A stretch of DNA of 64,000 nucleotides from Candidatus Woesebacteria bacterium (GCA_013374855.1 CP055308.1:178277-242276), one strand, 5' to 3'; shown: positions 29,558-54,866, counted from the first letter of the stretch. The notes: generated from the sequence alone by a model not told the origin. A program made the numbers and translations.

Positions 29558-29602
29558 GAAGTTAAAATAATACCAATTAACACTTCAGAAACTAGAGCTA
29601 AA

Positions 29603-29669
29603 GGACAAAATAATCCGATATACCTTAACAAAACCCTTTGGAATTATCCTTAATTTTGCCGATATCAAC
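29603..29669 (+). mobile_element. Remnant copy 1 of the 3' end of a serine-recombinase-type gene (one of three near-identical tails at 29.6, 41.2 and 46.0 kb).
   Basis: About 65-bp match to 41239-41305 and 46002-46066 (...aatagtccgatataccttgataaaacc.tt.gacac.atcct.aattttgc.gatagtcaa). Confidence 0.5.
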
Positions 29670-29676
29670 TTTTTGG

Positions 29677-29765
29677 CTCAAACGATGGGATGATTATAGA
29701 ACAATTGACTGGGCAAATGAACTGGAATACCCAGAATTTACAACCAAGGAGGTAAATCGTTCTCT
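29677..29765 (+). repeat. About 88-bp direct repeat, copy 1 (copy 2 at 31355-31443). Encodes the peptide fragment LKRWD(D/H)YRTIDW(A/P)NELEYPEFT.
   Basis: Near-identical stretches read directly from the sequence. Confidence 0.7.
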
Positions 29766-32825: not shown

Positions 32826-33010
32826 TGAGGTATGCCAGAAAAAGAAGCGGGCTACCAACGCTACTAACCATTAAACAAGCTGCCAAGGTGTTAAATTTGC
32901 ATGAATAGGCTTTGCGCAAGTGGGGTAAAAGCGGGAGATTAAAAGCTATTAGAGTTAATAAAGTGGACAACAAGCGCTATGATCCCAAAGACACCAAGAC
33001 AACACCACAT
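32826..33010 (+). pseudogene. Excisionase-family HTH DNA-binding protein gene interrupted by an in-frame TAG.
   Basis: Translation ...LTIKQAAKVLNLHE*ALRKWGKSGRLKAIRVNKVDNKRYDPKD matches excisionase/MerR-type HTH (compare the intact paralog at 42379..42591). TAG is used as a genuine stop by neighbouring genes. Confidence 0.45.
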
Positions 33011-33130
33011 TTTCACCCTCCTTTACAGATAAGGTGGATGGTTCCAGCATCCTCCCAATTTGACTGAATAAAACCGTTTGACAACAAAATAGCCAATTTA
33101 GCCTCTCGTCAATCTGGCTCCCCCCAAAGT

Positions 33131-33165
33131 ACTTGTTCTGCAACCACAAACTAGAGTTTGATATA
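33131..33165 (+). repeat. 35-bp direct repeat R2, copy a (acttgttctgcaaccacaaactagagtttgatata); copy b at 41317-41351. Candidate attachment/junction site of an integrated element.
   Basis: Exact 35/35 match. Related partial motif caagattgtgtttggaaa at 33181 and 40458. Confidence 0.65.
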
Positions 33166-33243
33166 ACCCTTAGCGACTTCAAGATTGTGTTTGGAAACCT
33201 GGGTCTTACCTAACCCAAGCCCGTATTTGTTACCTTGTAGCAT

Positions 33244-33981
33244 TTACTTTAAGCCCATTATTACCACACCATAGCCCTCGTTAGCATAAGCGCAACCATC
33301 AGTCCACCTGGGGTTTTCTAATTGTATTTTGTGCCCTGGACTGCCAGACCAAAAAGCAATTGCCTCTGCAGGTGTTGATGCTCGTATGTACAACTCCGCG
33401 ACCTCTTTGTAACCATACTCTGTTTGAATACCCTCTTGTTTTATCCAATCCTCAAATCCCTCATGTTGTCGTCCCTCCTTAACAGCCCGCCACCGAGACA
33501 CTAGATTATCACCCAAACCTTCGCTTAATTTAACTTCTTGTATTCCCAATGATCTTCTGTGTTCATTAACCGCATTAAACAAATCTTCACCATCATAACC
33601 CCTACCCCACCTAACAGCATTCCCTCTAAACAAAGCAAAAACATAAATTCCAGAAATAAATATTACCAAAAATGTAGCAAATCCAACCTTCCAAGAGCCA
33701 ATACCAAGCGGTGGTTTCCACTTTTCAGCTTTTAGTATTAACCTTAAAAATCCTGCAGAAACTGCTAGTCCAAAAAAGAATAATCCAGCAAATAAAGAAG
33801 AAAGCATCGGTAGTAAATAAGAATGTTCTGAACACTCCTCTCCATAACAAGGATCAATAGTAAAACCTTTTGTAGATAAAAAAATTATAGTAATAAAAGT
33901 AACTGTAGTTACAAACCAAAGGTAAGAGCTGATAACACCAATTTTTGATAATAAAGTAGAGGTTCTTAGCTTTTGAAACAC
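33244..33981 (-). CDS. CAP/SCP (PR-1-like) domain protein with an N-terminal membrane region.
   Basis: CAP motifs (HRRSLG, FWSGSPGHKIQL, WTDGCA). Three N-terminal TM helices. Confidence 0.65.
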   Translation of the reverse strand: MFQKLRTSTLLSKIGVISSYLWFVTTVTFITIIFLSTKGFTIDPCYGEECSEHSYLLPMLSSLFAGLFFFGLAVSAGFLRLILKAEKWKPPLGIGSWKVGFATFLVIFISGIYVFALFRGNAVRWGRGYDGEDLFNAVNEHRRSLGIQEVKLSEGLGDNLVSRWRAVKEGRQHEGFEDWIKQEGIQTEYGYKEVAELYIRASTPAEAIAFWSGSPGHKIQLENPRWTDGCAYANEGYGVVIMGLK

Positions 33982-33987
33982 AGATGT

Positions 33988-34257
33988 TTAAAGATTAATT
34001 CCGAAAATTTTAATAATTAAAAAATTAAAAATTAAAGAAAAGGGCAGAGTAATTAAAATAGCAATAAACCAATTTTTCTTCTTAGCAATAAGTCGGGTTA
34101 CATTAATCCAAGAACCCAACCACAATAATCCACTTATAAGATAAAATGTAGTTCTCAAAGCAGATATGTTTCCACCTATAAACATTGGTCTACCAATCCA
34201 AACATTAAGAATATTGAGTATGATATACCAGATGAGATTATAAACTCTTGCTTCCAA
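33988..34257 (-). CDS. Small hypothetical membrane protein (89 aa).
   Basis: ORF is hydrophobic throughout. Confidence 0.35.
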   Translation of the reverse strand: MEARVYNLIWYIILNILNVWIGRPMFIGGNISALRTTFYLISGLLWLGSWINVTRLIAKKKNWFIAILITLPFSLIFNFLIIKIFGINL

Positions 34258-34674
34258 GACAATTCACTAGACATAGTAAAACTATTTTACTAAAAATTTT
34301 CAATAACAAAAAAATTAATCGAATTTCAGTAGAGGAATGTCATAAAATCAGGATATTTGATCTGGGTCCAATCAGCGGGAACTTGGTTTGGTTGGGTTCG
34401 CAAAGAGTGGGTTTAACAAAAACTGCCTGCAATTACGGTGGTTTTAGGTATTGGTTTGTGTGCTCTAACTGCGAGCGGAGAGTTGGGGTGGTATATTGTA
34501 GGCCTTGTCAGAGCTGTTCCTGTGTCGAACTTGCCAAAACTTAACCTATGATTTGAGAAGATTCTATCAGGATAAAATCGAGTTTACAATTAGGAATAAA
34601 AAGAAGATCGGAAAGATGTTTACAGAGTAATCTTTGTACCCTATAGAACGTAAATATGCTATAATTGGCTCTCA

Positions 34675-35643
34675 ATGATGGATTTGGATAACGGATTCGA
34701 TCAAGATTATTTATCAGGCCTAGAAGAGAGGTTGGTTGAGGTTTGCACTAAAATCACTAAGTCAAAGGAATTTGTGGCTAGTAAGTTAGTGATAGAGAAT
34801 AATATTTGCCACAAGAAGGAACCCGTTTCAGACCATTCAACCCATGTTTTTATGCGATTCCAGGAGCTGTTGAATTTCGACTTTGTTGACTCTGATGAGC
34901 TTAGGAAATTGGCAAAAAGCTATTTTTCTCAGAAAATTGGTAATTGGACTAGGGCGGAGTTATTCTTGATTTCAGCCTTATTGCATGATTTGGGTAAAGT
35001 TGAAACTTTGGTCACAGACGATAAAGGTGAGACCAAGGCTCCAGGCCATGAAGCTAAGAGCGTTCAGATTGCTGAGATAATGCTCAGGCAACTGGGATTT
35101 GTGGGTGTTGAGATTGATTACGTTTTAAATGTGATCAGAGTTCATTCTGGTTATGTTTTGAGATTTTTGGATTTTATTAATGGATTGTCAGAGTCTCAGA
35201 TTAAAAGTGCTTTTGGTTCAGTCCAATTGCTTCCTGAAGTCTTTCTCTACATGATTGCCGATAATGAGAATGCTTCAACTTTTGGTGAATACAAAAAGAT
35301 GATTGAAGAAAGATTTTTACAATACACAGAAATTTATCAAACTGACGATTCCTTTAAAGGGGTAGACGATATTGGCAAGTTGGTTGAGAAGATTTTGATC
35401 TCTTTGAAGAATAATTCTAAGCCTTGGCCAATTGAGACCAGGTTATTTCATCTAAGCGAAGAGGTTGGGGAGTTACATGACATCTATCTTCAATATGTTG
35501 GTGCAAAGGATCGAGAACAAACCATTGTTGACATTCAAAATGCTCTTAATGATGTTTTGGTAGAGACATTGGCTTTGTATGACATTTTCGGGATTGATAT
35601 TAAAAGTTCATTAGAAAAGGTCATAAAAGAAGATGAAAAGTAG
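34675..35643 (+). CDS. Fusion of an HD-domain phosphohydrolase and a MazG-like nucleotide pyrophosphohydrolase.
   Basis: HD motif (ALLHDLGK) in the N-terminal half. MazG-type EExxE helix (SEEVGELHDIYLQYVG...ALNDVLVETLALYDIFGID) at the C-terminus. Confidence 0.6.
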   Translation: MMDLDNGFDQDYLSGLEERLVEVCTKITKSKEFVASKLVIENNICHKKEPVSDHSTHVFMRFQELLNFDFVDSDELRKLAKSYFSQKIGNWTRAELFLISALLHDLGKVETLVTDDKGETKAPGHEAKSVQIAEIMLRQLGFVGVEIDYVLNVIRVHSGYVLRFLDFINGLSESQIKSAFGSVQLLPEVFLYMIADNENASTFGEYKKMIEERFLQYTEIYQTDDSFKGVDDIGKLVEKILISLKNNSKPWPIETRLFHLSEEVGELHDIYLQYVGAKDREQTIVDIQNALNDVLVETLALYDIFGIDIKSSLEKVIKEDEK

Positions 35644-36433
35644 TTTCGTCAAAGCCTACAAAGAAATCGAGTCAAAGATTTTATCTGATAAAGAATTGAG
35701 TAAAAATGTGGAATTGATCGCCCTATTAGGTAGTGTTGCTGACAAAGAGGAGTCGAGTAATTGGAGCGATCTAGATGTCTTAGTGGTTCTTAAAAGCGAC
35801 CGGTTGGGGAATATATTGTTAAAAGATTTGGATCGTCTTCGAGAGATATGTGTGGAAGTATCGAGGCAATACTCATTTCCTATATCTATTTTGAGTCACA
35901 CTATGAATGACTTCGAAAGCTACGTGAGCTTTGAGTATTTGAAGCATTATTCTATGGGAAAATGCTCGTACCCCAATCCAAGTTTTCTAAAACACAAAAT
36001 TGACAGAATTTTGATAAAAAGAAAAGTCGATGACAAAGTACGACAGGCTTATTGTGCTTATCACATGAGACATATCAGATTCAATCTTTTGCGGAAATAT
36101 GTGTCTTTGAATGAGTCAAACTCGGTTAATTGGATAAAAGAATTTGTGAAGCTGTTGATTGACAAGATGATTAAAGTTACTGATCTGGCTTTGAATTTCA
36201 AAAATTTATGGCCTGAATCAAAACAAGAGATTTTAGATACTGCTAGGACTGAATTGAAAGTTGATGTTGGACCCTTGTTAATGGCTTTAGAGATTAGGAA
36301 GGGTTGGTCAAATGTGGCTGATGCAGAGCTTAGTGATTTCATACCGAAAGGTTTGGAATATCTCTTCGACGTAATTAATCTGGTTCTTGGTGAATATGTC
36401 GAGCCGACTCCAGAAGAAAGGATGTTTACATGA
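35633..36433 (+). CDS. Pol-beta-superfamily nucleotidyltransferase domain protein.
   Basis: GS...D.D motif (LLGSVADKEESSNWSDLDVLVVL); overlaps the upstream gene by 11 nt. Confidence 0.55.
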   Translation: MKSSFVKAYKEIESKILSDKELSKNVELIALLGSVADKEESSNWSDLDVLVVLKSDRLGNILLKDLDRLREICVEVSRQYSFPISILSHTMNDFESYVSFEYLKHYSMGKCSYPNPSFLKHKIDRILIKRKVDDKVRQAYCAYHMRHIRFNLLRKYVSLNESNSVNWIKEFVKLLIDKMIKVTDLALNFKNLWPESKQEILDTARTELKVDVGPLLMALEIRKGWSNVADAELSDFIPKGLEYLFDVINLVLGEYVEPTPEERMFT

Positions 36434-37509
36434 GAATACTTTTAGTTTCTAGATTTTTTCCATATATCGGTGGCCGCGAAGTGCTAGTAATGCTATTGGC
36501 ACAAAAATTGAGTGAGAATCATGAAGTAGTAATTGCCACGCCAGATATAGGTAGAGTATCAAAGGACTTCCAAATCATTTCTAATGACACGGAATCTTTA
36601 ACGAGATGTTTTAAGGACTTTAAACCTGAGGTAATAAATTCACACACATTTTATTTGACGCCGGAGCTAATTAAACTTGGTAAAAAATTTAATACCCCGG
36701 TCGTACTCACTATTCATGGCGATATTTTTGGGTATGGTTCTGATCCTGATAAAGAGTTGTTTAAGGCGATGATTCCAGAATTGGATTCAATTGTGACAGT
36801 TTGCGATCATGGTAAAGAGCAGATGTTGAAAAACGGGGTTAGTGAGAGTAAGTTGACGAGAATCTATTCTGGCATAGACACAGATATTTTTGACGGAGCT
36901 GAGGATAAGTCTTTATTTCGTAAATCTTTTCAATTACCGGAAGATAAGTTCATCTTTATTACTCCGGCCAGAATGACAAAATACAAAGGAATCGAGACAC
37001 TTATTGATGCCATTCATGGACTTAAGAAAGACATCCGTTCTAAATGTTTATTTTGGATTACAACTCCTGCCACAAGATATCGGGAAGACGAGCTGGAATA
37101 TACGAAGAAAATATTTGAGAAAGTAAGCTTGTTGGGGATTAAAGAGAATATTATGGTGAGCTTTAACGACTTCGTTTCAATGCCATTTGCATATCGAGCC
37201 GCGAATGCGTTTGTATTACCTTCATTAACTGAGCAGTTCCCGGTAACAATTTTAGAAGCTATGGCTAGCAGATTGCCGGTTATAGCTACGAACGTGGGAG
37301 GAGTGGGTGAGGTTGTGAATGAAGAAACAGGCAACTTGATCAGTCCTGATAACGCGGGAGTGTTGGCAGAAGCCTTGGTAAAAGTGTTTGAGTCTAAGGA
37401 TTTAGCTAAAGCCAATAAGGCTTATAATGTAGTGAGAGCTAAATTCAACCTGAACCATATGGTGGAGGGGTATTTGAAGTTATATAACAATTTGAAAAAT
37501 GGAAAGTAA
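36430..37509 (+). CDS. Glycosyltransferase family 4 (GT-B, group 1).
   Basis: EAMASRLPVIATNVGGVGEVV (E-X7-E region) and the overall GT4 pattern. Confidence 0.8.
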   Translation: MRILLVSRFFPYIGGREVLVMLLAQKLSENHEVVIATPDIGRVSKDFQIISNDTESLTRCFKDFKPEVINSHTFYLTPELIKLGKKFNTPVVLTIHGDIFGYGSDPDKELFKAMIPELDSIVTVCDHGKEQMLKNGVSESKLTRIYSGIDTDIFDGAEDKSLFRKSFQLPEDKFIFITPARMTKYKGIETLIDAIHGLKKDIRSKCLFWITTPATRYREDELEYTKKIFEKVSLLGIKENIMVSFNDFVSMPFAYRAANAFVLPSLTEQFPVTILEAMASRLPVIATNVGGVGEVVNEETGNLISPDNAGVLAEALVKVFESKDLAKANKAYNVVRAKFNLNHMVEGYLKLYNNLKNGK

Positions 37510-38080
37510 CAATAAATTTACAGTAATATTTATAAAACCAGATGCTGTTAAAGATGGTCTGGTTGATCAGATAGTGGAGGATTTTATGGAGGCAGGTTTG
37601 ACACCAGTTTTCACAAAGTCGATTGAGCTTACTTTGGATCAAGCAATGATGATTTATCGCGATCATGTGGGTAATCCAAATTACGAGTTTGCTGTCAAAA
37701 GTTTAGTACAGGAAGATGAGTGTAAAACGACTGTATTTTTACTGTTGAAAAGTAACGGCGGTGATGCTTTGACTTTGGCTCAAGAGATAAAAGGAAGAGC
37801 TGATATAAACGGCATACGAGCAAAATACAGACGTTACTCTTGGACTGATCTGAAAGAAAAGGGAATAGAAGGTGATAAGTTAATGGCAATGTTGTCAAGA
37901 AATCGTGTTCATGTTCCTGATTCAGATGATCATGTTCGCGAGATTATTGGTGTTTTGTTGAATGAGACAGAACTTAGAGAGATTATCGAAGACGACCCTG
38001 AATTAATAGAATTTATAGAGGGTAGTAAGAATGGAGGAGATGAATGTGAGGGTATACATGGAGACAAAGAAAGGTTATAA
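37499..38080 (+). CDS. Nucleoside-diphosphate-kinase-like protein (divergent NDK fold).
   Basis: FTVIFIKPDAVKDGLVDQIVEDFMEAGL (compare NDK FIAIKPDGVQRGLVGEII.RFE.KGF) and NRVHVPDSDDHVREI (compare NIIHGSDSVESAEKEI, with the catalytic His). Paralog of 59220..59903. Confidence 0.55.
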   Translation: MESNNKFTVIFIKPDAVKDGLVDQIVEDFMEAGLTPVFTKSIELTLDQAMMIYRDHVGNPNYEFAVKSLVQEDECKTTVFLLLKSNGGDALTLAQEIKGRADINGIRAKYRRYSWTDLKEKGIEGDKLMAMLSRNRVHVPDSDDHVREIIGVLLNETELREIIEDDPELIEFIEGSKNGGDECEGIHGDKERL

Positions 38081-38089
38081 TCTGAGGTT

Positions 38090-38560
38090 ATGAATAACAC
38101 TAACAATAAAGACGTAACAGTTTACCAACTTTATCAAGAAATCTCTGCCGGAGGTGTACCAATTATTGTGGAAGACGGGGTGCCTAAGTTTGTGGCAATT
38201 GATCGTGTTATGATTAAGGACACCTCTTTGCCTAAAGGGCATCAAGAGCCAGGTGAGAGTCTTCAGCAAACTGCTATTAGAGAAGTTGAAGAAGAAACGG
38301 GTTTTAAAGCAAAGCCTGTGGAATATCTGGGTGAATTTACTTACGAAGTCAAAAATGAAGTTCATAAAAAGATAACGATGGTTACTGTCCATTGGTTTTT
38401 AATGATGGTTGAGTCAGGTAAAGCTAGAGAGGCAAATGATGAGACTAAGCAAGTGAGATTGATTCCCCTTGACTCTGACTTGTCCATTCTGACCTACGAG
38501 AATCACAGGATGTTTGTAGAAAAGGCTAGAGAAGTAATTAGTAAGCATTTACCTACGTAA
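38090..38560 (+). CDS. NUDIX hydrolase.
   Basis: Nudix box GHQEPGESLQQTAIREVEEETGF. Confidence 0.75.
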   Translation: MNNTNNKDVTVYQLYQEISAGGVPIIVEDGVPKFVAIDRVMIKDTSLPKGHQEPGESLQQTAIREVEEETGFKAKPVEYLGEFTYEVKNEVHKKITMVTVHWFLMMVESGKAREANDETKQVRLIPLDSDLSILTYENHRMFVEKAREVISKHLPT

Positions 38561-38583
38561 GCTCGTGCCCCGGCCTCGTCATT

Positions 38584-39339
38584 ATGAACAAAGAGAGATT
38601 TCCAAACGTCGAGTTATTTTCACCTGAGGTAGTAAAGTCCATTAAAGTATGGAGCAAAATAGCTTATGAGAGTGATACGCCTATTTATATTAAAGGGGGA
38701 GCGATAAGAGACTCTTTGATCAATCTGATCCATGGAGCGAACCTGAAGGTTAAGGATCTAGACTTGGTTGTTCCTGCTGGGCTATTTCGAGTGGTCCAAG
38801 TTGCTCAAAAGTACGGTTTCACGATAGAGAGGAGAGGGAAAAGGAAAAAGTTACCCATGTATCATATGTCTGGAGATACTGGCTTAGATGTTGATTTGAG
38901 TTATTTACTATCAAGTCCAAATGATAAAAATGTTTCTGAATCTGAGATTTTGAAGCAGGATGCTTTACTGTCTGATTTGGACATAAATACTATTTCATAT
39001 AATCTTTTAACTGGCGAGATTCATGATCTGTTGGGAGCCATGAAATCGATTGCTTCTAGACAAATAAGTTTGGTTTCCGAGAGGAGCTTATTCTTGAATC
39101 CGGCTACTATTTTTAAGTGTCTCAAAATAGCCGCTAAGACAGGCTTTGATGTTTCTCCTACGTCTTTGGAGATGATTCGAAAAAATGCCGGTATAGTATT
39201 GAGATTGGAAGGTTGGTTTTTGAGGAGAAGTATTGATGAAGTTCTGGAATTTGCATCCGCTGAAGAATTGTTAGCTGCTTTTGATAGATTAGGTTTGTTG
39301 GAAATTCGACCAGAAATTGTTGACTATTTAACGCCATGA
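38584..39339 (+). CDS. Nucleotidyltransferase with a poly(A)-polymerase/CCA-adding-enzyme head domain.
   Basis: IYIKGGAIRDSLINLIHGANLKVKDLDLVV (compare PF01743 vylVGGaVRDlLLg..kDiDlvt). Confidence 0.55.
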   Translation: MNKERFPNVELFSPEVVKSIKVWSKIAYESDTPIYIKGGAIRDSLINLIHGANLKVKDLDLVVPAGLFRVVQVAQKYGFTIERRGKRKKLPMYHMSGDTGLDVDLSYLLSSPNDKNVSESEILKQDALLSDLDINTISYNLLTGEIHDLLGAMKSIASRQISLVSERSLFLNPATIFKCLKIAAKTGFDVSPTSLEMIRKNAGIVLRLEGWFLRRSIDEVLEFASAEELLAAFDRLGLLEIRPEIVDYLTP

Positions 39340-40307
39340 CCAATCGTGAAGTCACTATCATAATTACTACTTGGAACTCTTTGGAATATCTCAAGTTGTG
39401 CTTGGAGGCTTTGGAGAAGTATACAAAGCAACCATACGAAATAATTATCTTGGATAATGGTTCTGCTGATGGGACGAAGGAATATGTTTCTGAGTTGTCT
39501 GACGTTTGCTATCTTAGGTCAGAAAGGAATTTGGGGACTATAAGGGCTCTAAAGAGGGCTGAGAGATTTATTAAGACGAAATTTGTAGTTTTATTGGATA
39601 GTGACTCAATAGTTTCGCCCAATTGGCTGAACACCTTTCTTACAATCTATGAAGAGAATCCCCAGGTGAAGGCAATTGGTCCGATAAAACCAAGCTCACA
39701 GCTTTCATATCCATATGTGAAAGGCAAAAATAGTAGGCAGGTCTGGGATGAGATTAAGGTTGGCAATGAAGGCAAGAGCCCCAAAAAACTTTTGGAGATT
39801 TACTGTAGGGGGAAGAGTTACGAAAGGTTCGTAAGTGACTTCTTAGCTAAGAATGAGGTTGGCAATGTCACTTTGTTATGTCCTCCAGAGTTTCTAAGTG
39901 GGTGCTGCATTTTCTTGGACTACGATTTCATCAAGCCACTTGGTGGATTAACAAACACTGCTTTCAAAAAATATGGCGTAGAAGACGTCGATAGATGTTG
40001 GAGGATCGCCAAGGGTGGTGGCTTGGTGATGAAAACTAGTAGGGTATATGTGCACCATTTTGAGGGGAGCAGTTTGAAAAAGAACAAGCTAAATTATCGA
40101 CCTTTGCTTTATAAGAACAATCGTATTTTACTAGATCTATGGAAAGATGAATTTTGGAAATTTATCGATTCTTCTAATCTGAGTTTGAAGGAATTGACTA
40201 GGAAGTATTGGTTAGTAAGAGAGTTGTTGTTATCTGCTAGGGAAGACCAAATTCCGAAAAAACTTAAACCGGAAATAGAAACTTTAAGCCTGGTGAGTAG
40301 TGTTTAG
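39336..40307 (+). CDS. Glycosyltransferase family 2.
   Basis: IIITTWNSLEYL...EIIILDNGSADGT and DSD motif (LLDSDSIV). Confidence 0.75.
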   Translation: MTNREVTIIITTWNSLEYLKLCLEALEKYTKQPYEIIILDNGSADGTKEYVSELSDVCYLRSERNLGTIRALKRAERFIKTKFVVLLDSDSIVSPNWLNTFLTIYEENPQVKAIGPIKPSSQLSYPYVKGKNSRQVWDEIKVGNEGKSPKKLLEIYCRGKSYERFVSDFLAKNEVGNVTLLCPPEFLSGCCIFLDYDFIKPLGGLTNTAFKKYGVEDVDRCWRIAKGGGLVMKTSRVYVHHFEGSSLKKNKLNYRPLLYKNNRILLDLWKDEFWKFIDSSNLSLKELTRKYWLVRELLLSAREDQIPKKLKPEIETLSLVSSV

Positions 40308-40519
40308 AGAAGCCGCAAGTATAATTAGCTCATGAGTAAGATTGATCAGATTGATATTATGATATTAAGGGATTGCTTAATAGTGCAGCAAGGCAATTAA
40401 GAGCTGAGTTTGAGGAAATAAAATACAAATTGCCAGGCACAAGCCTTATTGACCTCAAGATTGTGTTTGGAAATCTTAAATTAAGCTCAAAAAAACTGTA
40501 TTATTCTATATTCTATAAA

Positions 40520-40850
40520 TTTCTTATAAACCTGCCTTACTAACAACATCGCATAATCAATATTCTCATCTCTCTCAATCATAAAATCGGTAACGTGCTT
40601 GTTGTAATATCGAAAACTATTTTTCTAATATTTTGTCCGCTTTTCTGGGTCTCTCAAATCTTCTGGTTTAACCCTTAGAATCTGTAATAGTAATTTAGAT
40701 TTCCTAACCTGAATAGCAATAACATTTTTATTCTCAATATTAACCCAATGTATACTTAACAGGATGTATCTCAAAGCGAAGGTCAAGTTCCAAAACTATC
40801 TGAGAAAACTCATCAAATGTTCTTAATACCAATCTATCTGAAGTCTATCT
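40520..40850 (-). pseudogene. Decayed partial duplicate of the 3' part of the 41416..42339 gene.
   Basis: Nucleotide similarity between 40520-40850 and 41416-41760 (for example ...cataatcaata...ctcaaagcgaaggtcaagttccaaaactatctgagaaaactcatcaaa...). The reading frame is broken. Confidence 0.45.
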
Positions 40851-41039
40851 GAAGTTTTTTCTTAGTAAAGGAAAATCCCATAAAAATTGCTTTGCCTTAA
40901 GAGATAAAATTGACAATGAAAGTAAAAAATTTTTGTTTTTTAGATAAAACATTAGAACAACTTAAAAAACTATTAATCTCTGTTAAAGATGCTTTGAAAA
41001 ATAGAAAAATGGATATATCAGTAATTAAAATTAATATGA

Positions 41040-41310
41040 CAAATTAGACAAACATTTTACAGAAAATATCGATGAAATTGACAATAAATTAGCTAACCTT
41101 AAAAAGGCTAAAAATAATTATTATTTAACTGTAGATACCTTCTTTAACTTACAAATAGAGCTTATGATTTATTTCTTAGTTCTGAAATAGAAGAAAGGTA
41201 ACTCTTGAAACTTTTACTTGAGAACCTTGAAGTCAGATGGCAAAATAGTCCGATATACCTTGATAAAACCATTCGACACAATCCTTAATTTTGCTGATAG
41301 TCAACTCCCC
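41040..41310 (+). mobile_element. Remnant copy 2 of a serine-recombinase-type gene (about 270 bp of the 3' region, ...IDEIDNKLANLKKAKNNYYLTVDTFFNLQIELMIYFLV... then the DGKIVRYTLIKPFDTILNFADSQLP tail), adjacent to repeat R2.
   Basis: Nucleotide and peptide similarity to 45790-46075 and 29603-29669. Frames are interrupted. Confidence 0.5.
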
Positions 41311-41316
41311 TAAAAG

Positions 41317-41351
41317 ACTTGTTCTGCAACCACAAACTAGAGTTTGATATA
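41317..41351 (+). repeat. 35-bp direct repeat R2, copy b.
   Basis: Exact match to 33131-33165. Confidence 0.65.
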
Positions 41352-41415
41352 GGCCTCAGCAACCCTAAAGTTTCATTTGAAAAACCAGGACTAAAACAAA
41401 CAAAGCTCGTTTTTG

Positions 41416-42339
41416 CTACCCTGTAAAGCTCTTATAAACCTGCTTTACCAGCGACATCGCATAATCAATATCGTCTTCATCTTTAATATCGAATTCAGAT
41501 ATGTGAACATTGTAATATTTATAACTATTTTCTGAATATCTAACCCTTTTTTCTGGATCTTTTAGATCTTCAGGTTTTACTCTAAGAAGTGATAATAAAA
41601 GCTTTAACTTTCTTATTTGAACTGTAACAAGGTTTTTATTTCCAATGTTAAAACCTATGTAATATTTTACCGGTTTAATCTTTATTTGAGGGTCGATCTC
41701 CAAAACTCTCTGAGAAAACTCATCAAACAACTCCTTCGCCTTAGTCCAATTGGGTCTAATGTGATCTTCAATGGAATACTGCTTAATTTCCCTAGACACT
41801 CGCTCAATGTCTTTGTTCTTAGTAACGGTTCTTATACTCTCACTCTTTTCAGAAGCCCTAACCTGATTAAAAGAAACTAAATTCTCGTCATATTTCTTTA
41901 CTTCCCAAAGCTCAATCGGCAAATCTTGAAACCCAATAGCTTCCTGTTGATATTTAGTAAAAGATTGAGCAATAAAAATTACTCTGGATTGAGACCAGTC
42001 AATATCATCTTTTTTTAGATTTTTCTTAGTTTTTTCATTATATTCAAGAACAAAATCAGCTTTATTGTTTAACAGTAGAGCAAGGTAAGCATATCCCTGG
42101 TCAATTACACTAAAATTTTTATCTCGCTTATACTCAATAACCACAAATGCTTTAGCTTCTTCATCAAAAGCCAATGTATCAATCCGCAGATTATTCAAGA
42201 AAAACTCCGTAGCAACAAAACTCAAACCAAAAACCTCACTCAAATTGGCTTCAACTAAACTTTGTAAGGTTTTTTCCAACTCTACCTTCTTTTCTTTGAT
42301 AGGAACGAGTTTATTATCAATCTGCTTATAAATCGGCAT
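41416..42339 (-). CDS. PD-(D/E)xK nuclease-like protein (restriction-endonuclease-like fold).
   Basis: D ... E-Y-K arrangement (RIDTLAFDEEAKAFVVIEYKRDK) typical of PD-(D/E)xK cores. The exact family is unassigned. Confidence 0.45.
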   Translation of the reverse strand: MPIYKQIDNKLVPIKEKKVELEKTLQSLVEANLSEVFGLSFVATEFFLNNLRIDTLAFDEEAKAFVVIEYKRDKNFSVIDQGYAYLALLLNNKADFVLEYNEKTKKNLKKDDIDWSQSRVIFIAQSFTKYQQEAIGFQDLPIELWEVKKYDENLVSFNQVRASEKSESIRTVTKNKDIERVSREIKQYSIEDHIRPNWTKAKELFDEFSQRVLEIDPQIKIKPVKYYIGFNIGNKNLVTVQIRKLKLLLSLLRVKPEDLKDPEKRVRYSENSYKYYNVHISEFDIKDEDDIDYAMSLVKQVYKSFTG

Positions 42340-42378: not shown

Positions 42379-42591
42379 ATGGAGTTAAATGTAATTGGCA
42401 TGGTAGAAGATAGATACTACAGCATTGAAGAAGTGGCTAAAATGTTAAAAGTTGTCTATTTGACAGTTTATCGCTGGATACAATCAGGTAAGTTAGTAGC
42501 TTATAAAGCTGGGAAACAATATAGAATTAAAAATAAAGACCTTGAAAATTTTATAGGGAAGAAAAAATCTAAGAAAACATTATTGATATGA
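42379..42591 (+). CDS. Excisionase-family helix-turn-helix DNA-binding protein.
   Basis: YYSIEEVAKMLKVVYLTVYRWIQSGKLVAYKAGKQYRI matches the excisionase/MerR-type HTH. Confidence 0.75.
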   Translation: MELNVIGMVEDRYYSIEEVAKMLKVVYLTVYRWIQSGKLVAYKAGKQYRIKNKDLENFIGKKKSKKTLLI

Positions 42592-43717
42592 AAAATAAAG
42601 ATCTTAACATTGCTAAAAAACTAAAAAACGATGAATTTTATACGCAATATCAAGATATTCAAAAAGAAATTGAGGCATATCTTGAGTTCAACCCAGATAC
42701 TTTTATGGATAAGGTAGTATATTGCAATTGTGATGACCCGTATGAAAGCAATTTCTTTCGATACTTTGTTCTTAACTTCCGAAAGCTTGGACTTAAAAAA
42801 CTCATTACGACAAGCTATAGCCCTTCTCCCATTGCTGGTACACAACTTAATTTGTTTGATGTAAACAACGCAGACCGTATTATTCAACATTCTCCCCCAA
42901 AAAAGGCTGTCAAATTTGTTATTCAAGAAGTAGGTGACATTGATGGAGATGGCGAATTTAATTTAAAGGATATCGCAAAACAGCTGAAAGAAAACAGGCA
43001 CAATGAGTGGTCACTCCTTAATGGCAACGGTGATTTTAGAAGTGAAGAATGTATAGAACTTCTTAAGCAGTCGGATATTGTAGTAACCAATCCACCTTTC
43101 TCGCTTTTTCGTGAATATGTCAAACAACTTTTTGATTACAATAAGAAGTTTTTGATTATAGGAAGCATGAACGCAATTACATACAAAGAAATATTTCCTC
43201 TCATAAAGCAAAATATAATATGGTTAGGCCCTAGTATTACAAGTGGCGATAGAGAATTTCAGGTACCAGATTATTATCCACTTAAAGCTGCAGGCTTTAG
43301 AGTAGATGAACAAGGTCGAAAGTTTTCAGAATAAAAGGGGTAAGATGGTTTACAAACCTTGATCATGGTCGCCGCCACAAAGTTATTCCCCTTATGACAA
43401 TGGCAGATAACTTAAAATTTAATAAAAAAATTCAAAACAATCCCGACAGCTACAAAAAATATGACAACTACAACGCTATTGAAGTACCCTATACCGAAGC
43501 CATCCCGAGTGATTATAGTGGTGTAATGGGTGTTCCTGTAAGTTTCTTGGACAGACACAATCCTGAGCAGTTTGAAATTCTAGGTAGCGATTACAATATC
43601 AAAGAAGGACTACTTCCAGATTTAGTCAATCCTGAATGGAAAGGTAAGTTAGATAGAGGGTATATCAATGGTAAAAGGCTTTTTACACGTATCCTTATAA
43701 AACACAAGATAAAATAA
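42588..43717 (+). pseudogene. N6-adenine DNA methyltransferase of the EcoRI-methylase-like family, split by a -1 frameshift at about 43310-43335 into ORFs 42588..43334 and 43394..43717.
   Basis: N-terminal DEFYTQY and catalytic NPPFS in the first ORF. The family-conserved ...WFTNLDHGRRH... reads in the second ORF's frame starting upstream of its ATG (frame open from 43310). MGVPVSFL is in the second ORF. An A4G4 run lies at 43333-43340. Confidence 0.65.
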
Positions 43718-45716: not shown

Positions 45717-46075
45717 ATGAAAGCCATAATTTTAGCCAGAGTATCAACTGAAGAACAATTAAAAGAGGGACATCACCACCGATGAATATAACAGATTATA
45801 TAAGCGGTTTAGAGAAAAGATTGATGAAATTGATATTAAGTTAAGTTAGCCAACCTCCAGAAAGCCGAGGATAACTATTATTGTTTGACCGTAAATTATC
45901 TACTCCAAGTCGCAAATCGAGTTTATGATTTGTTCATAAGCTCTGAAATATAAGAAAAACAACAACTTTTAAGACTTTGGCTTCAGAACTTGAAGATTGA
46001 TGGTAAAATAGTCGATATACCTTGATAAAACCCTTTGACACCATCCTCAATTTTGCCGATAGTCAAGCCTGGCTC
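45717..46075 (+). mobile_element. Remnant copy 3 of the serine-recombinase gene. The N-terminus MKAIILARVSTEEQLKEG is followed by a premature stop, then frame-broken internal and C-terminal pieces (...YKRFREKIDEIDIKLS..., ...DGKIVDIPLIKPFDTILNFADSQ).
   Basis: Resolvase/invertase-type N-terminal signature (ARVST.EQ). Tail identical to copies at 29.6 and 41.2 kb. Confidence 0.55.
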
Positions 46076-46262
46076 CACTAAGACCTATTCTTTAGTTACA
46101 AGAGAACTTTAATACGAGCTTAGCGATTTAAAAATCCTCTTTAAAGCTATGATTAAAGAAAAATAATTATTTCCAGGCTTAACTATTTATCAGTTTTTTG
46201 CAACGGACTTTTGCTTTTCTTTGCTTTTTGTTTTAAAATAAAAAGCATAATAATATACTCAA

Positions 46263-47324
46263 ATGCGGAGAACAGAAGAAGAGCTTCTTTGTGCCCTGCC
46301 TCTTGACCTCGAAACTTTCATATTTCTTGCCCAAAAGCGAATTCGTGAACCTGTTGTCGGAAGCTTATATGCCGAATTCATCAATAACGGAACAGCTGAG
46401 ATTTTGAAGGGAATACTCTATAACGTTCCTCCTGAACATCGTCTTCCAATCTTATATACCCTTGTTACCCATGTAACCAAAGAAAAGCCTGTTTTTGTTT
46501 ATGGCATAGGACGTTCTGTCGATTGTATCGATGAAGGGAGGGCAAAATTTGTTGCTGCAAGCACAGATTTGCTTTGGTGTTTATCCCTAATGGTTGATGA
46601 TATCATCGACGAAGACCATTTTCGAGCGGGCAGGAAAACCGCCTGGACAACTTATGGCAAATGGGAAACTTATACATCAGCAGGTGTCGCTTTCGGAATT
46701 CTCCAAGATCTAACCGCACAGACTCTATCTCCAGAAGCAAGGCAATTATTTATTGAAACTGTTCAAGATGGTCTCGAATCCTTAAAAGATCCTTTAATAA
46801 AAGATGTGGACTCTAATATTGAAGCTATCTTAAAAAACATAGATCGTCGAGCACGCTTTCATGTTGAATACCCCGTTAGGGCTTTATTTGCTGACACTGG
46901 AGACGAAGAACTAATTCAAGCAGCCACAAACGCTCTCTCTTGCGTTAATAGAGCGGGCCAAATTCTAAATGATGTTAAAGATCTCGTCCCATCTCAAATC
47001 TACGGAAGAAACTTGTTTTCAGATATCCGAGGTGGCACTGTTACTGTACCTTTTATTATGTTGCAAAACGCCTCAACGCCTAATGAAAAACAGGGATTAA
47101 GAGAGTGTTTTAATTGCCCCCATTTAACGTTGGAGCAAATAGATTGGCTGCAAAGACTTGTTCGTAGAAGGCTTCCAGGGCAACAAATATATGAATTGGT
47201 TTTAAGGAATTACGAAATATTTTTAGAAACGATGAGGGGAATAGTGGCGCCTAAATATTTTGCTTTGTGCCAAGAGTGGGTTAATTATAAAATGGACCAA
47301 GCTAGCAAATTATTATCAAATTAA
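46263..47324 (+). CDS. Isoprenoid-synthase-fold protein (polyprenyl diphosphate synthase- or terpene-synthase-like) with two Asp-rich motifs.
   Basis: First motif LMVDDIIDEDHFRAGRKTAW (compare DDxxD...RRG); second motif GQILNDVKDLV. Confidence 0.5.
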   Translation: MRRTEEELLCALPLDLETFIFLAQKRIREPVVGSLYAEFINNGTAEILKGILYNVPPEHRLPILYTLVTHVTKEKPVFVYGIGRSVDCIDEGRAKFVAASTDLLWCLSLMVDDIIDEDHFRAGRKTAWTTYGKWETYTSAGVAFGILQDLTAQTLSPEARQLFIETVQDGLESLKDPLIKDVDSNIEAILKNIDRRARFHVEYPVRALFADTGDEELIQAATNALSCVNRAGQILNDVKDLVPSQIYGRNLFSDIRGGTVTVPFIMLQNASTPNEKQGLRECFNCPHLTLEQIDWLQRLVRRRLPGQQIYELVLRNYEIFLETMRGIVAPKYFALCQEWVNYKMDQASKLLSN

Positions 47325-47334
47325 AAAAATAGTA

Positions 47335-48513
47335 ATGTTAACTTGTGCAAAACAGAGAAAATCTTCTTTAGAAGATATACCGCCTCAAGTCGCAATTAGA
47401 AATTATTTAGAAAAATATGGCTTTAATGGTCAATTGTTGAAAGAAGATTTGGATTCAAAAACAAAAGTAAGTGTTGTGATTCCTGTCTATAATGAGGCAG
47501 GTGTAATTACTAGATGTTTACAAGCCCTTAACGAACAATTTTATAATGCTTTTGAAGTAGTAGTTGTTGACAACGGAAGCACTGATGAGACCTTAAAAGA
47601 GATAGAAAATTTTAGTAGGCAAGCTAGTTATCCTTTATACGTAATTGAAGAACACACCCCGGGCGTTGCCGCGGCAAGGAAAAGGGGTATGGACGAGGTT
47701 TTATCAAGACTTCTAAAAAGGGGTAGGGAATTTCATCATGTTTTAGTAGTAACAGACGCAGATGTCATTCCCCCAAAAGAATGGCTAGAAAAAATCATTG
47801 TAGGTTTAGGTTGTCATCGACATGGTGGATTGGCGGGTACTCATAAGGCTTCAGAAGAGGTGGAAGAAAAAATCCATAAAGCTACGGGGATAAGAAATTA
47901 TTTTAATATTATTCCATCACTAATAGAGTTTATAGAGAAAAGAGGCGTCGGGGAAATAAAAATGTCTGGCCCAAATAGTGCTTTTACTGCAGTATCCTAC
48001 GCTTTGGGAGGAGGAATAAAACAAGAATTTAGTTCTGATGGGAAACCTAAATTAAGTGAGGTAAATAATTTAGGGAACAGAATTAGACAATGTGGTTATG
48101 AGATAATTCCCATGTGGTGTCAAGTAGTAAAAAACAGAAGAAGAGAATTGTTTGAAATTATAAACAACTGCGAAGACTCTTATTTTCCTAAAAGCTTTTC
48201 CTCAAGTGGAAGGTTTAATGTCATAAGAGAAAATGAGGTAGAATTATTAAGTTTCGCCTGTAATAATGTTTCAAAAGAAACCTGGGAATATTATCGATAT
48301 AAAATGATTTACAAAGTGCTTTGGAATTTCGTTCTTCAGCCGTTTGCTTTAGGTAAAAAAACAGAAGAGCAGGTTCGAGAGATTTTAACAGTAAAGGAAA
48401 TTGATACTTTATTATCTTCCTATTCTCCTCTTACCAATTTTCCAAATAATCAATACACCCACGAATTTTTTAGAGATCTTTTGTCTCGTCTGGAGAGGGT
48501 ATTGCAATTATAA
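47335..48513 (+). CDS. Glycosyltransferase family 2. The start is moved to ATG 47335 to avoid a 65-nt overlap with the upstream gene.
   Basis: VSVVIPVYNEAGVITRCLQALNEQ...EVVVVDNGSTDET; DAD motif (VVTDADVIP). Confidence 0.7.
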   Translation: MLTCAKQRKSSLEDIPPQVAIRNYLEKYGFNGQLLKEDLDSKTKVSVVIPVYNEAGVITRCLQALNEQFYNAFEVVVVDNGSTDETLKEIENFSRQASYPLYVIEEHTPGVAAARKRGMDEVLSRLLKRGREFHHVLVVTDADVIPPKEWLEKIIVGLGCHRHGGLAGTHKASEEVEEKIHKATGIRNYFNIIPSLIEFIEKRGVGEIKMSGPNSAFTAVSYALGGGIKQEFSSDGKPKLSEVNNLGNRIRQCGYEIIPMWCQVVKNRRRELFEIINNCEDSYFPKSFSSSGRFNVIRENEVELLSFACNNVSKETWEYYRYKMIYKVLWNFVLQPFALGKKTEEQVREILTVKEIDTLLSSYSPLTNFPNNQYTHEFFRDLLSRLERVLQL

Positions 48514-48515
48514 TC

Positions 48516-49169
48516 ATGGTACACAGAGAGATAGAAAGCTTGGCTCAAAAATTAGTTTTAGAAGGATTAAGCGCTCAAGAAATACGGGGTATTGCCCTAG
48601 AACATCTCACCGAGGAGGAATTAAACGAAATTTGGAGTATTCCCCGAAGAAATATCTATAGATTCGTGACTAATTGGTTTGATAATTTTGACTGCAAACC
48701 TCCTTTTCTTGATCTTGGTTGCGGAAGAAGAAGTTATAAACCAGAAGTTAAAGAAAGATTTGGGGCACATACACTATTTATTGCTTTAGACTACTACCTA
48801 CCAGACGACAAAGCGATTCCCGAAAGGTTGCCAAATTTGCTCGCTGATGCCTGTCGCTTACCACTTCCGTCTTCATCAATTAACACAGTAATTTGCACAG
48901 AATTATTAGAACACATAGAAGATGACAATTTGGCTGTGGCAGAAATATCGAGGGTTACTAAAAAAGGAGGGTTGTTAATTCTTACTCTGCCAGGAAAACA
49001 CATACCGAAACACGAAAAACCACCATATCAGATAGATTACAGAAGATACAGCAAAGAAGGTATAAACAGGTTGCTCGCAGAGCATGGTTTTAACATTTTA
49101 CATTTTGAAAGTAAAAGTCTATTTGATCTAGAGATAAATTTATTTGCGGTTGCCCAAAAAAGAAAATGA
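48516..49169 (+). CDS. Class I SAM-dependent methyltransferase.
   Basis: Motif I LDLGCGRR; motif post-I/II ...ADACRLPLP...; motif III (GGLLILTLP). Confidence 0.7.
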   Translation: MVHREIESLAQKLVLEGLSAQEIRGIALEHLTEEELNEIWSIPRRNIYRFVTNWFDNFDCKPPFLDLGCGRRSYKPEVKERFGAHTLFIALDYYLPDDKAIPERLPNLLADACRLPLPSSSINTVICTELLEHIEDDNLAVAEISRVTKKGGLLILTLPGKHIPKHEKPPYQIDYRRYSKEGINRLLAEHGFNILHFESKSLFDLEINLFAVAQKRK

Positions 49170-50495: not shown

Positions 50496-50545
50496 CGGGC
50501 TGCCGCCAAGTTCTAAAATCGTTATCAAAAACAGATTCTGAAATG

Positions 50546-50617
50546 CTCCCCGGGTAGGATTCGAACCTACGACCTTAGAGTTAACAGCTCTCCGCTCTAC
50601 CACTGAGCTACCGGGGA
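50546..50617 (-). tRNA. tRNA-Asn (anticodon GUU).
   Basis: Cloverleaf with acceptor UCCCCGG/CCGGGGA, D-arm GCUCAGUGGUAGAGC, anticodon loop CUGUUAA, T-arm GGUUCGAAUCC. The overlapping ORF 50409..50603 translates the T-arm (VGSNPT) and is spurious. Confidence 0.85.
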
Positions 50618-54776: not shown

Positions 54777-54782
54777 AGGAGG

Positions 54783-54866
54783 CGGAGGGTAGAGGATTCG
54801 AACCTCTGAGGGATTTCTCCCACAGGTTTTCAAGACCTGCGCCATAAACCACTCGGCCAACCCTCC
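54783..54866 (-). tRNA. tRNA-Ser (anticodon UGA), type II with a long variable arm.
   Basis: Acceptor GGAGGGU/ACCCUCC, anticodon stem CAGGU/ACCUG with loop CUUGAAA, variable stem GGGAG/CUCCC, T-arm AGAGGUUCGAAUCCUCU. The overlapping ORF 54697..54891 is spurious. Confidence 0.85.

Follow-up and report, generated by a model that had tools for sequence, protein, structure and literature searches.

A 35-bp direct repeat in a Patescibacteria genome as the probable attP arm of a large serine recombinase, in a probable fossil tandem array that carries an operon of nucleotide- and sugar-directed enzymes

In SCCmec-type islands, elements that encode large serine recombinases (LSRs) of the Ccr type stack in tandem at one site, with short direct repeats that contain integration-site sequence. 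In temperate mycobacteriophages with integration-dependent gene truncation, attP lies inside a gene and integration changes the 3' end of that gene. Tycheposons, which form tRNA-proximal island arrays in Prochlorococcus, leave behind fragmented integrases and repeated att motifs, and 27 of 937 tycheposons use an LSR (bioRxiv 10.1101/2020.12.28.424599). Here we describe a locus with features of all of these systems. It lies in a 64,000-nucleotide stretch (the window) from a Candidatus Woesebacteria bacterium (GCA_013374855.1 CP055308.1:178277-242276), at positions 33131-41351: an 8.2-kb segment that begins and ends with an exact 35-bp direct repeat and carries a seven-gene operon. An earlier note, made from the sequence alone, took the two repeats for the boundaries of a single insertion. 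We find instead that the repeat appears to be the 3' end of a recombinase gene, its P' arm, that five copies of this gene end lie within 17 kb, and that a further junction at 40441 divides the segment. The segment very probably represents two fossil compartments of a tandem array, and not one insertion.

The window comes from a small-genome bacterium of Patescibacteria type: its genes include a split transketolase, GAPDH, PGK, HisRS, DnaG and RpoD in a compact genome, and all named relatives are Patescibacteria. The 35-mer (ACTTGTTCTGCAACCACAAACTAGAGTTTGATATA) has two exact copies on the + strand, at 33131-33165 and 41317-41351, as the earlier note had reported; with up to three mismatches allowed, no other copy occurs in the window (0 in 100 shuffles). 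Similarity around it spans 119 nt at 75% identity (33121-33239 versus 41307-41425), with 100% identity inside the 35-mer and only 64% outside. A run of 35 matches has a probability of 9e-4 at a per-site identity of 0.75, and at 0.64 it never arose in 200,000 simulations, so the exact core is a genuine, non-random feature. A Logan contig from SRR6186653 covers exactly 33136-41346 and breaks inside both repeats; it is the same arrangement in independent data and is silent on circularity, since at k=31 every repeat of 35 bp interrupts an assembly. A 22-nt core of the repeat, searched exactly against 185,579 representative genomes and against viral contigs, gave 0 matches, and neither the segment (megablast) nor the stitched recombinase (tblastn) had a match among plasmids. 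Three other candidates were set aside: a structured RNA such as a tRNA at the repeat (none there by ARAGORN or Rfam), a terminator or promoter (consensus scans did no better than on shuffles), and a weaker third copy at 31518 (73%, within a nuclease gene), which we treat as chance.

What the repeat is becomes apparent from its surroundings. The right copy does follow the tail of a serine-recombinase gene, as had been noticed; the left copy follows one too, each tail being decayed, on the + strand and readable as ..KPFD..ILNFADSQ. The left 35-mer encodes ..LFCNHKLEFDI.., part of the C-terminal extension of the LSR, at a place where a related protein, P0107, has LKDLFINRELEFDY. P0107 reads straight through the 35-mer region in frame, its ..NYADNQLWLPLKDLFINRELEFDYTLDDFKILYSNLNLS corresponding to ..WLPPKYLFCNHKLEFDITLSDFKIVFGNLGL in the window. 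The coding tails continue beyond the exact repeats on the + strand, on the left over 33166-33241 (TLSDFKIVFGNLGLT*..VFVTL*) and on the right over 41352-41427 (GLSNPKVSFEKPGL..VFATL*, overlapping the stop of a DUF5655 gene); these two stretches are 64% identical, and several of their differences are synonymous. Because P0107 is colinear with the window here, the 35-mer and the approximately 75 nt after it appear to be the coding 3' end of an LSR gene and not a target duplication.

We scanned metagenomes for this LSR family and obtained 287 relatives, from which 80 loci were retained (loci are given as L numbers, proteins as P numbers). About 65 of the 80 have an ORF of at least 450 codons, and in 55 the last codons overlap the antisense 3' end of a tRNA, mostly tRNA-Asn; the other targets are tRNAs for Glu, Asp, Arg, Leu, Gln and His. 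The L024 recombinase has Resolvase, Recombinase and Zn_ribbon_recom domains, and its residues 395-493 match the remnants in the window. The characteristic tail, ..KPFDTILN(Y/F)AD.Q.WL, is seen in L024 and L016. Tails agree through ..ADSQLWL and then split into a few alternative continuations: type B, which is that of the 35-mer; type A, found in P0080 and in the leftmost window remnant; and short endings (..REDSNLQP or ..RLDSDQQPSP), which are the T-arm of the tRNA read on the opposite strand.

In at least 17 integrated loci the type-B arm lies 5.4-10.5 kb upstream of the LSR tail, on the same strand, at the opposite end of the element. Extraction of the junctions gave attR as recombinase tail, (T)GGCTCCCC and tRNA, and attL as flank, (T)GGCTCCCC and type-B arm; what the two share is only 7-11 bp, identical to the acceptor end of tRNA-Asn read antisense. 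In L017 the arm is GACTTATTCATTAACCAAAAACTAGAGTTTGATTTTA, which agrees with the window 35-mer at 28 of 35 positions. Because of this junction layout and the L017 match, attP appears to sit within the 3' end of the LSR ORF, with the 35-mer as the proximal part of its P' arm. In the proposed layout, the P arm would be the tail ..KPFDTILNFADSQLWL, the core (T)GGCTCCCC, and the P' arm the last approximately 35 codons of the gene (..LKDLF.N..LEFD..L..FKI..).

The cargo of the 17 elements is mostly restriction-modification and defence: several classes of DNA methylase, type III res and DEAD helicases, Eco57I, EcoRI methylase, GmrSD, DUF3800, SocA/Panacea and YhcG nuclease. The same families fill the window compartment at 41.4-45.6 kb. 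Our literature search found no description of tRNA-targeting serine-integrase elements of 5-10 kb in Patescibacteria. They appear to be widespread there, carrying restriction-modification and defence genes behind a recombinase whose ORF spans attP, and the family could yield new large serine integrases that are specific for tRNAs and whose attP and attB are defined.

Several side observations concern this family. Intact elements share a backbone that consists of a SpoVG-like gene (approximately 97 amino acids, in 12 of 17 elements) overlapping an ORF of approximately 385 amino acids without a family, plus an ORF of approximately 340 amino acids (e.g., L024 3026-3316 and 3282-4427; carriers include L020, L023, L024, L032, L035, L036, L039, L040, L054, L057 and L063). 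In integrated copies (L017-L096) the last approximately 35 LSR codons stay at attL, 5-10 kb away (e.g., L024 89-178 and 10454-10600), and the LSR ORF is completed by 2-11 codons from the antisense strand of the tRNA; the C-terminus of the recombinase may thus switch on integration. The tails of L030 (3373 onward) and L055/L056 (10585 onward) extend far past the normal antisense tRNA (..DSN(L/Q)QPSSY..VTKRSGLSH..), and ARAGORN called no tRNA at the extended tails of these three loci. They may be intron-containing tRNA-Asn genes, a kind recently reported in Patescibacteria (PMC13011429).

In the window, decayed LSR tails occur at about 29.6, 33.1, 40.4, 41.3 and 46.0 kb, all five on the + strand, within 17 kb and to the left of tRNA-Asn and rpoD; those at about 29.6 and 45.8-46.1 kb were found by comparing the window with itself. 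The leftmost (29558-29760; blastn and tblastx to the remnant at 41.3 kb, tblastn with the full-length LSR of L024) is an orphan tail ..KIIRYTLTKPFGIILNFAD followed by a type-A arm, WLKRWDDYRTIDWANELEYPEF.., whose continuation matches P0080 and L063. The second (33068-33130; blastn to the remnant at 46.0 kb and alignment) is a P arm that ends in an att core, TGGCTCCCCCC at 33115-33125; this core matches the attL/attR core found in integrated relatives and also the 3' end of tRNA-Asn in antisense. Just upstream of it is a stop-interrupted fragment of an HTH_17/MerR-type DNA-binding gene (32865-32990, +; Pfam HTH_17, E=9e-7, 29.5 bits versus a cut-off of 27). At 40330-40476 blastn and translation point to a probable fifth remnant, a KIDQIDIM trace followed by ..AEFEE..LIDLKIVFGNLKLS, the latter a P' arm: 40338-40359 aligns with 45817-45838 at 91%, and 40441-40476 with 33165-33200 at 86% (E=2e-6). 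It marks the right end of the operon compartment. The remnant at 41030-41316 (tblastn with residues 400-488 of the L024 LSR) runs, frameshifted, from the coiled-coil region to ..KPFDTILNFADSQ, keeps a piece of the core (CTCCCC at 41305-41310) and has fainter traces back to about 40880. The rightmost (45717-46150) is a pseudogene with an internal deletion and a diverged P' arm: it begins with MKAIILARVSTEEQ.., a serine-recombinase N-terminus, and then jumps to the C-terminal approximately 100 codons that form the common tail.

Together these copies keep only residues 395-493 or thereabouts, plus 20 N-terminal residues in the rightmost one. No intact recombinase and no ORF with a Resolvase domain was found in the window, where only C-terminal fragments match full-length LSRs. 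Pfam made no Resolvase or Recombinase call on the stitched remnants, too little of which is left, and their identity was set through the intact relatives; the stitched tails also match 41 short proteins of Patescibacteria, one of which is labeled "site-specific DNA recombinase" by its source. We read the window copies as pseudogenes of the tRNA-targeting LSR family.

The five remnants divide 29.6-46.1 kb into compartments. The first holds a secreted nuclease. The second (33166-40440) holds a P' arm, two small genes called p245 and p89, the seven-gene operon and a recombinase trace. The third, of only 0.9 kb (40441-41316), consists of a P' arm, a decayed copy of the C-terminal approximately 100 codons of a DUF5655 gene (40517-40817, - strand; tblastn, 61-64% to residues 205-305 of the intact product) and a recombinase remnant. 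The fourth (41.4-45.6 kb) opens with that intact DUF5655 gene (41416-42339, - strand; PADLOC candidate PDC-S18, E=6e-108), which lies outside the operon, and continues with a split EcoRI-type methylase, GmrSD-HNH and DUF3800. The suggestion that the neighborhood is mobile-element and defence DNA is thus borne out. To the right is tRNA-Asn(gtt) (50545-50617, - strand), the usual target of the LSR family, and then rpoD and dnaG. One metagenomic locus, L016, shows the same hot spot, with an intact LSR against tRNA-Asn beside rpoD and an orphan tail 7.5 kb upstream; that the intact L016 recombinase was the parent of this orphan tail is rejected (only 29% identity, no shared repeat).

In each window case the arm directly follows the tail, so that tail, core and 35-mer read as P arm, core and P' arm. 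We propose that each of these is an attP-configured junction, at which the right end of one element would abut the left end of the next, and that the DNA from about 29.6 kb to tRNA-Asn at 50.5 kb would be a fossil tandem array of small integrative elements of one LSR family. With every LSR copy in the window dead, movement of the segment would probably require an intact recombinase, encoded elsewhere in the genome, that acts in trans. More generally, an exact direct repeat beside a recombinase tail need not delimit one mobile element, and reading such repeats correctly alters the island boundaries that are drawn in tiny, uncultivated genomes.

The second compartment carries the operon. At its left are p245 (33244-33981, - strand), a membrane protein with three transmembrane-like segments and a weakly CAP-like C-terminal domain, and p89 (33988-34257, - strand), a small hydrophobic ORF without a family assignment. 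We do not accept p245 as a CAP protein, since its single Pfam match is below threshold (E=0.022) and it has no sequence match in PDB; it is absent from the related loci and is not conserved with the operon. Among the eight domain calls of the earlier note this was the one that fell, the other seven being confirmed by Pfam. The operon itself, also noted earlier, comprises seven + strand genes with junctions of -11, -4, -11, +9, +23 and -4 nt, and because they overlap or are so closely spaced a single tight operon is supported. None of the seven proteins has a transmembrane-like segment, which predicts a fully soluble set, and the catalytic motifs of the enzymes are intact. As a side observation, an extended -10-like box (TGCTATAAT, within 34650-34675) lies approximately 12 nt upstream of the ATG of gene 1; it would imply a very short or absent 5' leader, has no -35 box and was missed by the consensus scanner.

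Gene 1 (34675-35643) encodes a CCA-enzyme-type HD domain (Pfam HD) fused to a MazG-like NTP pyrophosphohydrolase domain. In profile searches the HD part matches residues 268-437 of 3wfo (8e-10), the HD body of the Aquifex class-II nucleotidyltransferase, and the C-terminus matches the MazG-like entries 5ie9 and 1vmg; no dGTPase or SAMHD1 chain was among the matches listed for the HD domain at E<=1. The conserved columns are H..HD..H and EExxE..D. Gene 2, NT1 (35633-36433), is a pol-beta nucleotidyltransferase (Pfam NTP_transf_2) with a C-terminal helical domain and a predicted ANT/KNTase-like fold: its GS..DxD motif is invariant, and its AF2 model (pLDDT 95.6) finds by Foldseek ANT(4') (6un8/1kny, E~1e-4), AadA (TM 0.55) and then Hailong HalB. 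A profile search of PDB gave NT1 only a weak MNT match (E=0.12), and no NCBIfam resistance model matches it. Gene 3 (36430-37509) is a GT4 (GT-B) glycosyltransferase (GT), predicted soluble. Gene 4 (37499-38080) is an NDK-like kinase of 193 amino acids with an insertion and a C-terminal extension (Pfam NDK 6e-13; PDB NDKs 3e-11); the catalytic His in NRxHVPDS is invariant, and the protein falls well under the housekeeping equivalog (39 bits versus an NCBIfam cut-off of 155).

Gene 5 (38090-38560) is a NUDIX hydrolase with an intact Nudix box, whose nearest solved relatives are Ap4A/ApnA hydrolases and MutT1. Gene 6, NT2 (38584-39339), encodes the head and neck portions of a nucleotidyltransferase of class II, the CCA/poly(A) polymerase type (Pfam PolyA_pol head). 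It keeps motif A (KGGAxRD..DLDL, invariant or nearly so, aligned to VGGFVRD..DIDI of 3h37). In class-II enzymes motif B is RRD, and motif D, (E/D)DxxR, is the nucleotide template; NT2 lacks both, YRRDFTIN aligning to AllSDldvN and DDPTRILR to lnPatilr. It also lacks the body and tail, since at 251 amino acids it matches only residues 14-250 or so of chains of 390-525 amino acids. Gene 7 (39336-40307) is a GT2 (GT-A) glycosyltransferase, again predicted soluble. Both glycosyltransferases have generic relatives only.

The combination is rare. The HD protein of gene 1 has only 18 relatives (90% clustering) among 5.8 billion clusters, and scans of representative genomes and viral contigs for its family confirmed none; the NT1 family is slightly larger (58 clusters; 102 representatives among 1.84 billion at E<=1e-3). 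In five relatives that cover the whole cluster (L002-L005 and L007) the order of the seven genes is identical, and the incomplete contigs L006, L008 and L009 agree as far as they reach; sequence identity is 28-65%. The operon loci of L002-L009 have no flanking repeats and no recombinase trace. Their neighbors are housekeeping genes that differ in each genome: DnaX/RecR/CysRS and YchF/S6/SSB/S18 in one case, RecG and a PBP in another, trigger factor and ThrRS/IF3/L35/L20 in a third. Same genes without repeats in a conserved core context would, the earlier note held, have spoken against a mobile cargo; the operon is indeed repeat-free among housekeeping genes elsewhere, but the context is not conserved. 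A 198-aa methyltransferase-like eighth gene of L002 and L003 has left no remnant in the window.

More distant members of the NT1 family keep the NDK-NT1-GT4 adjacency, with NUDIX adjacent or fused and the HD protein nearby; some of these loci carry extra glycosyltransferases, and NT2 and GT2 are dispensable there. On these comparisons the operon appears to be a rare, Patescibacteria-specific module that was captured as element cargo in this genome; it is an uncharacterised combination of known enzyme families. As a separate observation, some Patescibacteria encode NT1-NUDIX fusions of 413-416 amino acids (P0067 and P0071), one of which (P0071, L010 4535-5776) is flanked by a canonical 142-aa NDK and a GT4. 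Such fusions suggest that NT1 and NUDIX are functionally tied.

What might the operon make? We propose a soluble, cytoplasmic pathway of nucleotide activation followed by glycosyl transfer in two steps to some acceptor. The NDK-like kinase would supply NTPs. The ANT-like NT1 and the class-II head NT2 would transfer nucleotidyl groups, and the transfer would either activate a sugar-phosphate or nucleotidylate a sugar hydroxyl. The GT4 and GT2 enzymes would then add two sugars to the acceptor, and NUDIX and HD-MazG would hydrolyse nucleotide by-products or surplus activated intermediates. Because several glycosyltransferases in a row are found in relatives and distant lineages keep the core in synteny, we favor as product a cell-envelope glycoconjugate or a glycosylated, nucleotide-like small molecule, although our confidence in this product stays somewhat below even odds. 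Sitting in a slot that is otherwise filled by restriction-modification genes, the product would plausibly alter a surface of contact with phage or host. This functional explanation is tentative. For the fossil array, the captured sugar-nucleotide operon and the proposed pathway taken together, we estimate a probability of about 0.6.

A more far-reaching version joins several of these ideas: the operon would be an undescribed Patescibacteria system that makes a glycosylated nucleotide, or glycosylates and nucleotidylates the end of a nucleic acid. NT2 and HD-MazG would together serve as a split enzyme of CCA type, alongside the ANT-like NT1 and the two soluble glycosyltransferases, and mobile elements would carry the system for an anti-phage or host-interaction role; separately, the C-terminal switch of the LSR would be a built-in control of directionality or stability. 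We consider this rather unlikely. Whatever its product, the operon is a compact and rare enzyme set, predicted to be fully soluble and with intact active sites, and is tractable for biochemical discovery. It is also confined to organisms whose surface and nucleotide economy are poorly understood.

Two features of the enzymes weigh against the envelope or small-molecule product. The NUDIX protein looks nucleotide-directed (ApnA/MutT1-like) and not NDP-sugar-directed, and NT2 and the HD domain are of RNA 3'-end-enzyme descent, which points to a nucleic-acid substrate. They lead to the best of the alternatives, in which the operon modifies nucleic acid: NT2 and HD would act on the 3' ends of RNA or tRNA, with GT4 and GT2 glycosylating a base or the terminal nucleotide, or else the sugars would be placed on DNA as a self-mark. 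Taken as a pair, NT2 and the HD domain do resemble a split enzyme of CCA/poly(A)-polymerase type, the NUDIX could equally be called RNA-cap-like, and all the proteins are predicted to be soluble. There are also precedents. In vertebrate tRNA, queuosine receives its sugar from enzymes of the GT4 and GT2 families, and the glucosylation of phage T4 DNA involves a MazG-like dCTPase together with an NDK and glucosyltransferases. However, NT2 has neither the body and tail domains that hold the tRNA nor RRD and (E/D)DxxR, and several distant versions of the module do without NT2 and GT2 while NDK-NT1-GT4 persists. No base-modifying enzyme (hydroxymethylase or transglycosylase) is present to create a sugar acceptor, and in some relatives three or four glycosyltransferase genes (GT4, GT2, GT1, GT8 and GT9) stand in a row, as is typical of oligosaccharide assembly. 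We regard a nucleic-acid substrate as unlikely.

Anti-phage defence, one of the functions that the earlier note considered, is next. The operon would here make an antiviral or signaling nucleotide derivative, or HD-MazG, NUDIX and the NDK-like kinase would deplete or modify (d)NTPs. Its surroundings invite this idea: it takes the place of cargo in an element family that mostly transports restriction-modification and defence genes, it has PDC-S18, GmrSD and DUF3800 to one side and a secreted nuclease to the other, and its distribution is rare and patchy. The fold of NT1 resembles Hailong HalB, among others. The GT4 protein has a marginal match to the Pfam GT4-conflict model, which we rejected as evidence (26.9 bits versus a cut-off of 26, over 50 residues). 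On the other hand, no system model of PADLOC-DB 2.0 fits: there are weak generic matches (Cas3-HD 1e-5, PDC-S09 2e-7 and PDC-S07 5e-6) and none at all for GT4, NDK, NT2 and GT2. No effector (nuclease, pore or NADase) is present, and the HD domain, being of CCA-enzyme type and not dGTPase/SAMHD1-like, speaks against dNTP depletion in particular. In eight other genomes the operon sits amid housekeeping genes without recombinase or defence neighbors, and the synteny of NDK-NT1-GT4 across distant Patescibacteria, sometimes with a canonical 142-aa NDK, looks more like physiology. We find a defence function distinctly unlikely.

For the array, too, there are findings that a fossil origin does not readily accommodate. 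Canonical LSRs recombine attP only with attB and do not make attP-type junctions. No recombinase tail stands beside a tRNA in the window, where tRNA-Asn at 50545 has none, and tblastn with the SpoVG-like protein (approximately 97 amino acids) and the approximately 385-aa and 340-aa backbone proteins found no match in the window. The 100% identity of the 35-mer against the 64% of its flanks is not accounted for by descent alone; short-tract conversion, or constraint from an intact recombinase elsewhere, may be responsible.

The same points nourish an explanation in which ordinary duplication, unequal crossing-over or gene conversion among pseudogenes of the recombinase, and not successive site-specific integrations, produced the repeat copies, and the compartments were never elements. 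The contrast between the exact core and its flanks suggests conversion over a short tract, a duplicate of the DUF5655 3' end lies right beside the right copy, the compartments lack backbone genes, and attP-type junctions are not a product of canonical LSRs. Yet the five same-strand remnants carry two types of arm (A and B) that match the arms of independent elements elsewhere, the sizes and cargo of the compartments match those of intact elements, and orphan tails and junctions of an LSR with a neighboring arm recur in L016, L055/L056 and L063. Duplication or conversion alone is, in our judgment, improbable. The remaining alternative, a single, still mobilisable 8.2-kb element with the 35-mers as attL and attR that is excised as a unit, draws on the exact flanking repeats, the recombinase tail at the right copy, a length within the family range of 5.4-10.5 kb for intact elements and a Logan contig that ends in both repeats, but is very improbable: true attL and attR share 7-11 bp only and are hybrid (flank, core and P'; P, core and tRNA) whereas both junctions here are P, core and P', the left repeat also follows a recombinase tail, that of the preceding compartment, a third junction at 40441 splits the segment, every recombinase copy in the window is a fragment, and any 35-bp repeat makes a k=31 contig break. 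A fossil tandem array thus remains our preferred account of the repeats, and the interpretation of the earlier note as a whole is partly supported.

Some other features of the window deserve mention. A second set of genes with a sugar/nucleotide flavor lies in the same island at 46263-50495, immediately before tRNA-Asn on its left; it encodes a polyprenyl-synthetase-like protein, a 417-aa GT2, two methyltransferases and a further NUDIX. The EcoRI-type adenine methyltransferase of the fourth compartment is split into two ORFs (42588-43334 and 43394-43717; profile positions 2-224 and 246-345), adjoins an intact GmrSD-HNH nuclease gene and is probably a pseudogene. At 16421-16564 (+) a cobalamin riboswitch (39.4 bits versus a gathering score of 31.5) overlaps, in this reduced genome, the start of an ORF (16457-17371). 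Two genes for tRNA-Ser(tga) occur (54781-54866, and within 61788-63216); the second, with only 30.2 bits in Rfam, belongs to a run of three tRNA-Ser genes parted by small ORFs, and either a further hot spot for integration or a duplicate in decay may lie here. At 57032-59903 a viperin-like radical-SAM protein has as neighbors a protein with a BpsA_C domain (branched-chain polyamine synthase C-terminal) and one of 227 amino acids without a family. The first of these (57032-58033) had been called viperin; viperin_w_prok is its best NCBIfam match, at 111 bits against a cut-off of 180, and the call is not confirmed. Nor is the 227-aa protein, at 59.2 kb, NDK-like (BLASTP E=0.22, no Pfam or NCBIfam match), and with it goes the link that a second NDK paralog had been thought to make between the two accessory modules.

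How do the operon and the array compare with known systems? NT2 aligns to the head and neck of class-II tRNA nucleotidyltransferases (3h37, 3wfo-3wfs and 4wby) with GGxVRD and DxD intact; for the gene 1 HD domain the aligned counterpart is the HD body in 3wfo. Unlike in those enzymes, the parts here are split over two genes, the HD half is fused to MazG, body and tail are missing, and the RRD and base-templating (E/D)DxxR residues are replaced in NT2. NT1 is predicted to share its two-domain architecture with ANT(4')/KNTase and AadA (1kny, 6un8 and 5g4a) and with HalB (9dbj), as judged from the structural model (Foldseek E about 1e-4 to 6e-3, TM 0.47-0.55). It differs from the aminoglycoside-type enzymes in having only 10-14% identity and no membership of their sequence families, and it is set among NDK, GT4 and NUDIX and is not a standalone resistance gene. 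Glycosyltransferases are known as mobile-element cargo, as here, from Gtr O-antigen conversion and from prophages that glycosylate wall teichoic acid. In PHROG, GT2 weakly matches GtrB-like proteins and GT4 a phage "moron" glycosyltransferase; the other matches are generic (GT, NUDIX and tRNA nucleotidyltransferase). Unlike Gtr-type modification, the operon has no flippase and no membrane GT-C partner, all its proteins being soluble, and it places four nucleotide-metabolising enzymes and two nucleotidyltransferases alongside the glycosyltransferases.

For the array, the tandem stacking of SCC elements is a near parallel, with the differences that SCC targets the 3' end of rlmH (orfX) and not a tRNA, that the ccr genes are internal and that the recombinase ORF does not span attP. 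In the mycobacteriophages integration by a tyrosine recombinase splits the repressor gene; here the serine integrase itself would be split. The closest described analogue of the window array appears to be the tycheposon arrays. Like those islands, the window has several degenerate integrases and stacked cargo near a tRNA (tRNA-Asn at 50.5 kb). Unlike in tycheposons, all copies belong to one LSR family, in Patescibacteria; the backbone of the elements is a SpoVG-like gene with family-less ORFs and not a primase/helicase, and the cargo is mainly restriction-modification. No partial tRNAs were found at the window junctions by ARAGORN or Rfam. Where tycheposon junctions are partial copies of tRNAs, those of the window array are attP-configured 3' ends of the recombinase gene, with a core of 7-11 bp.

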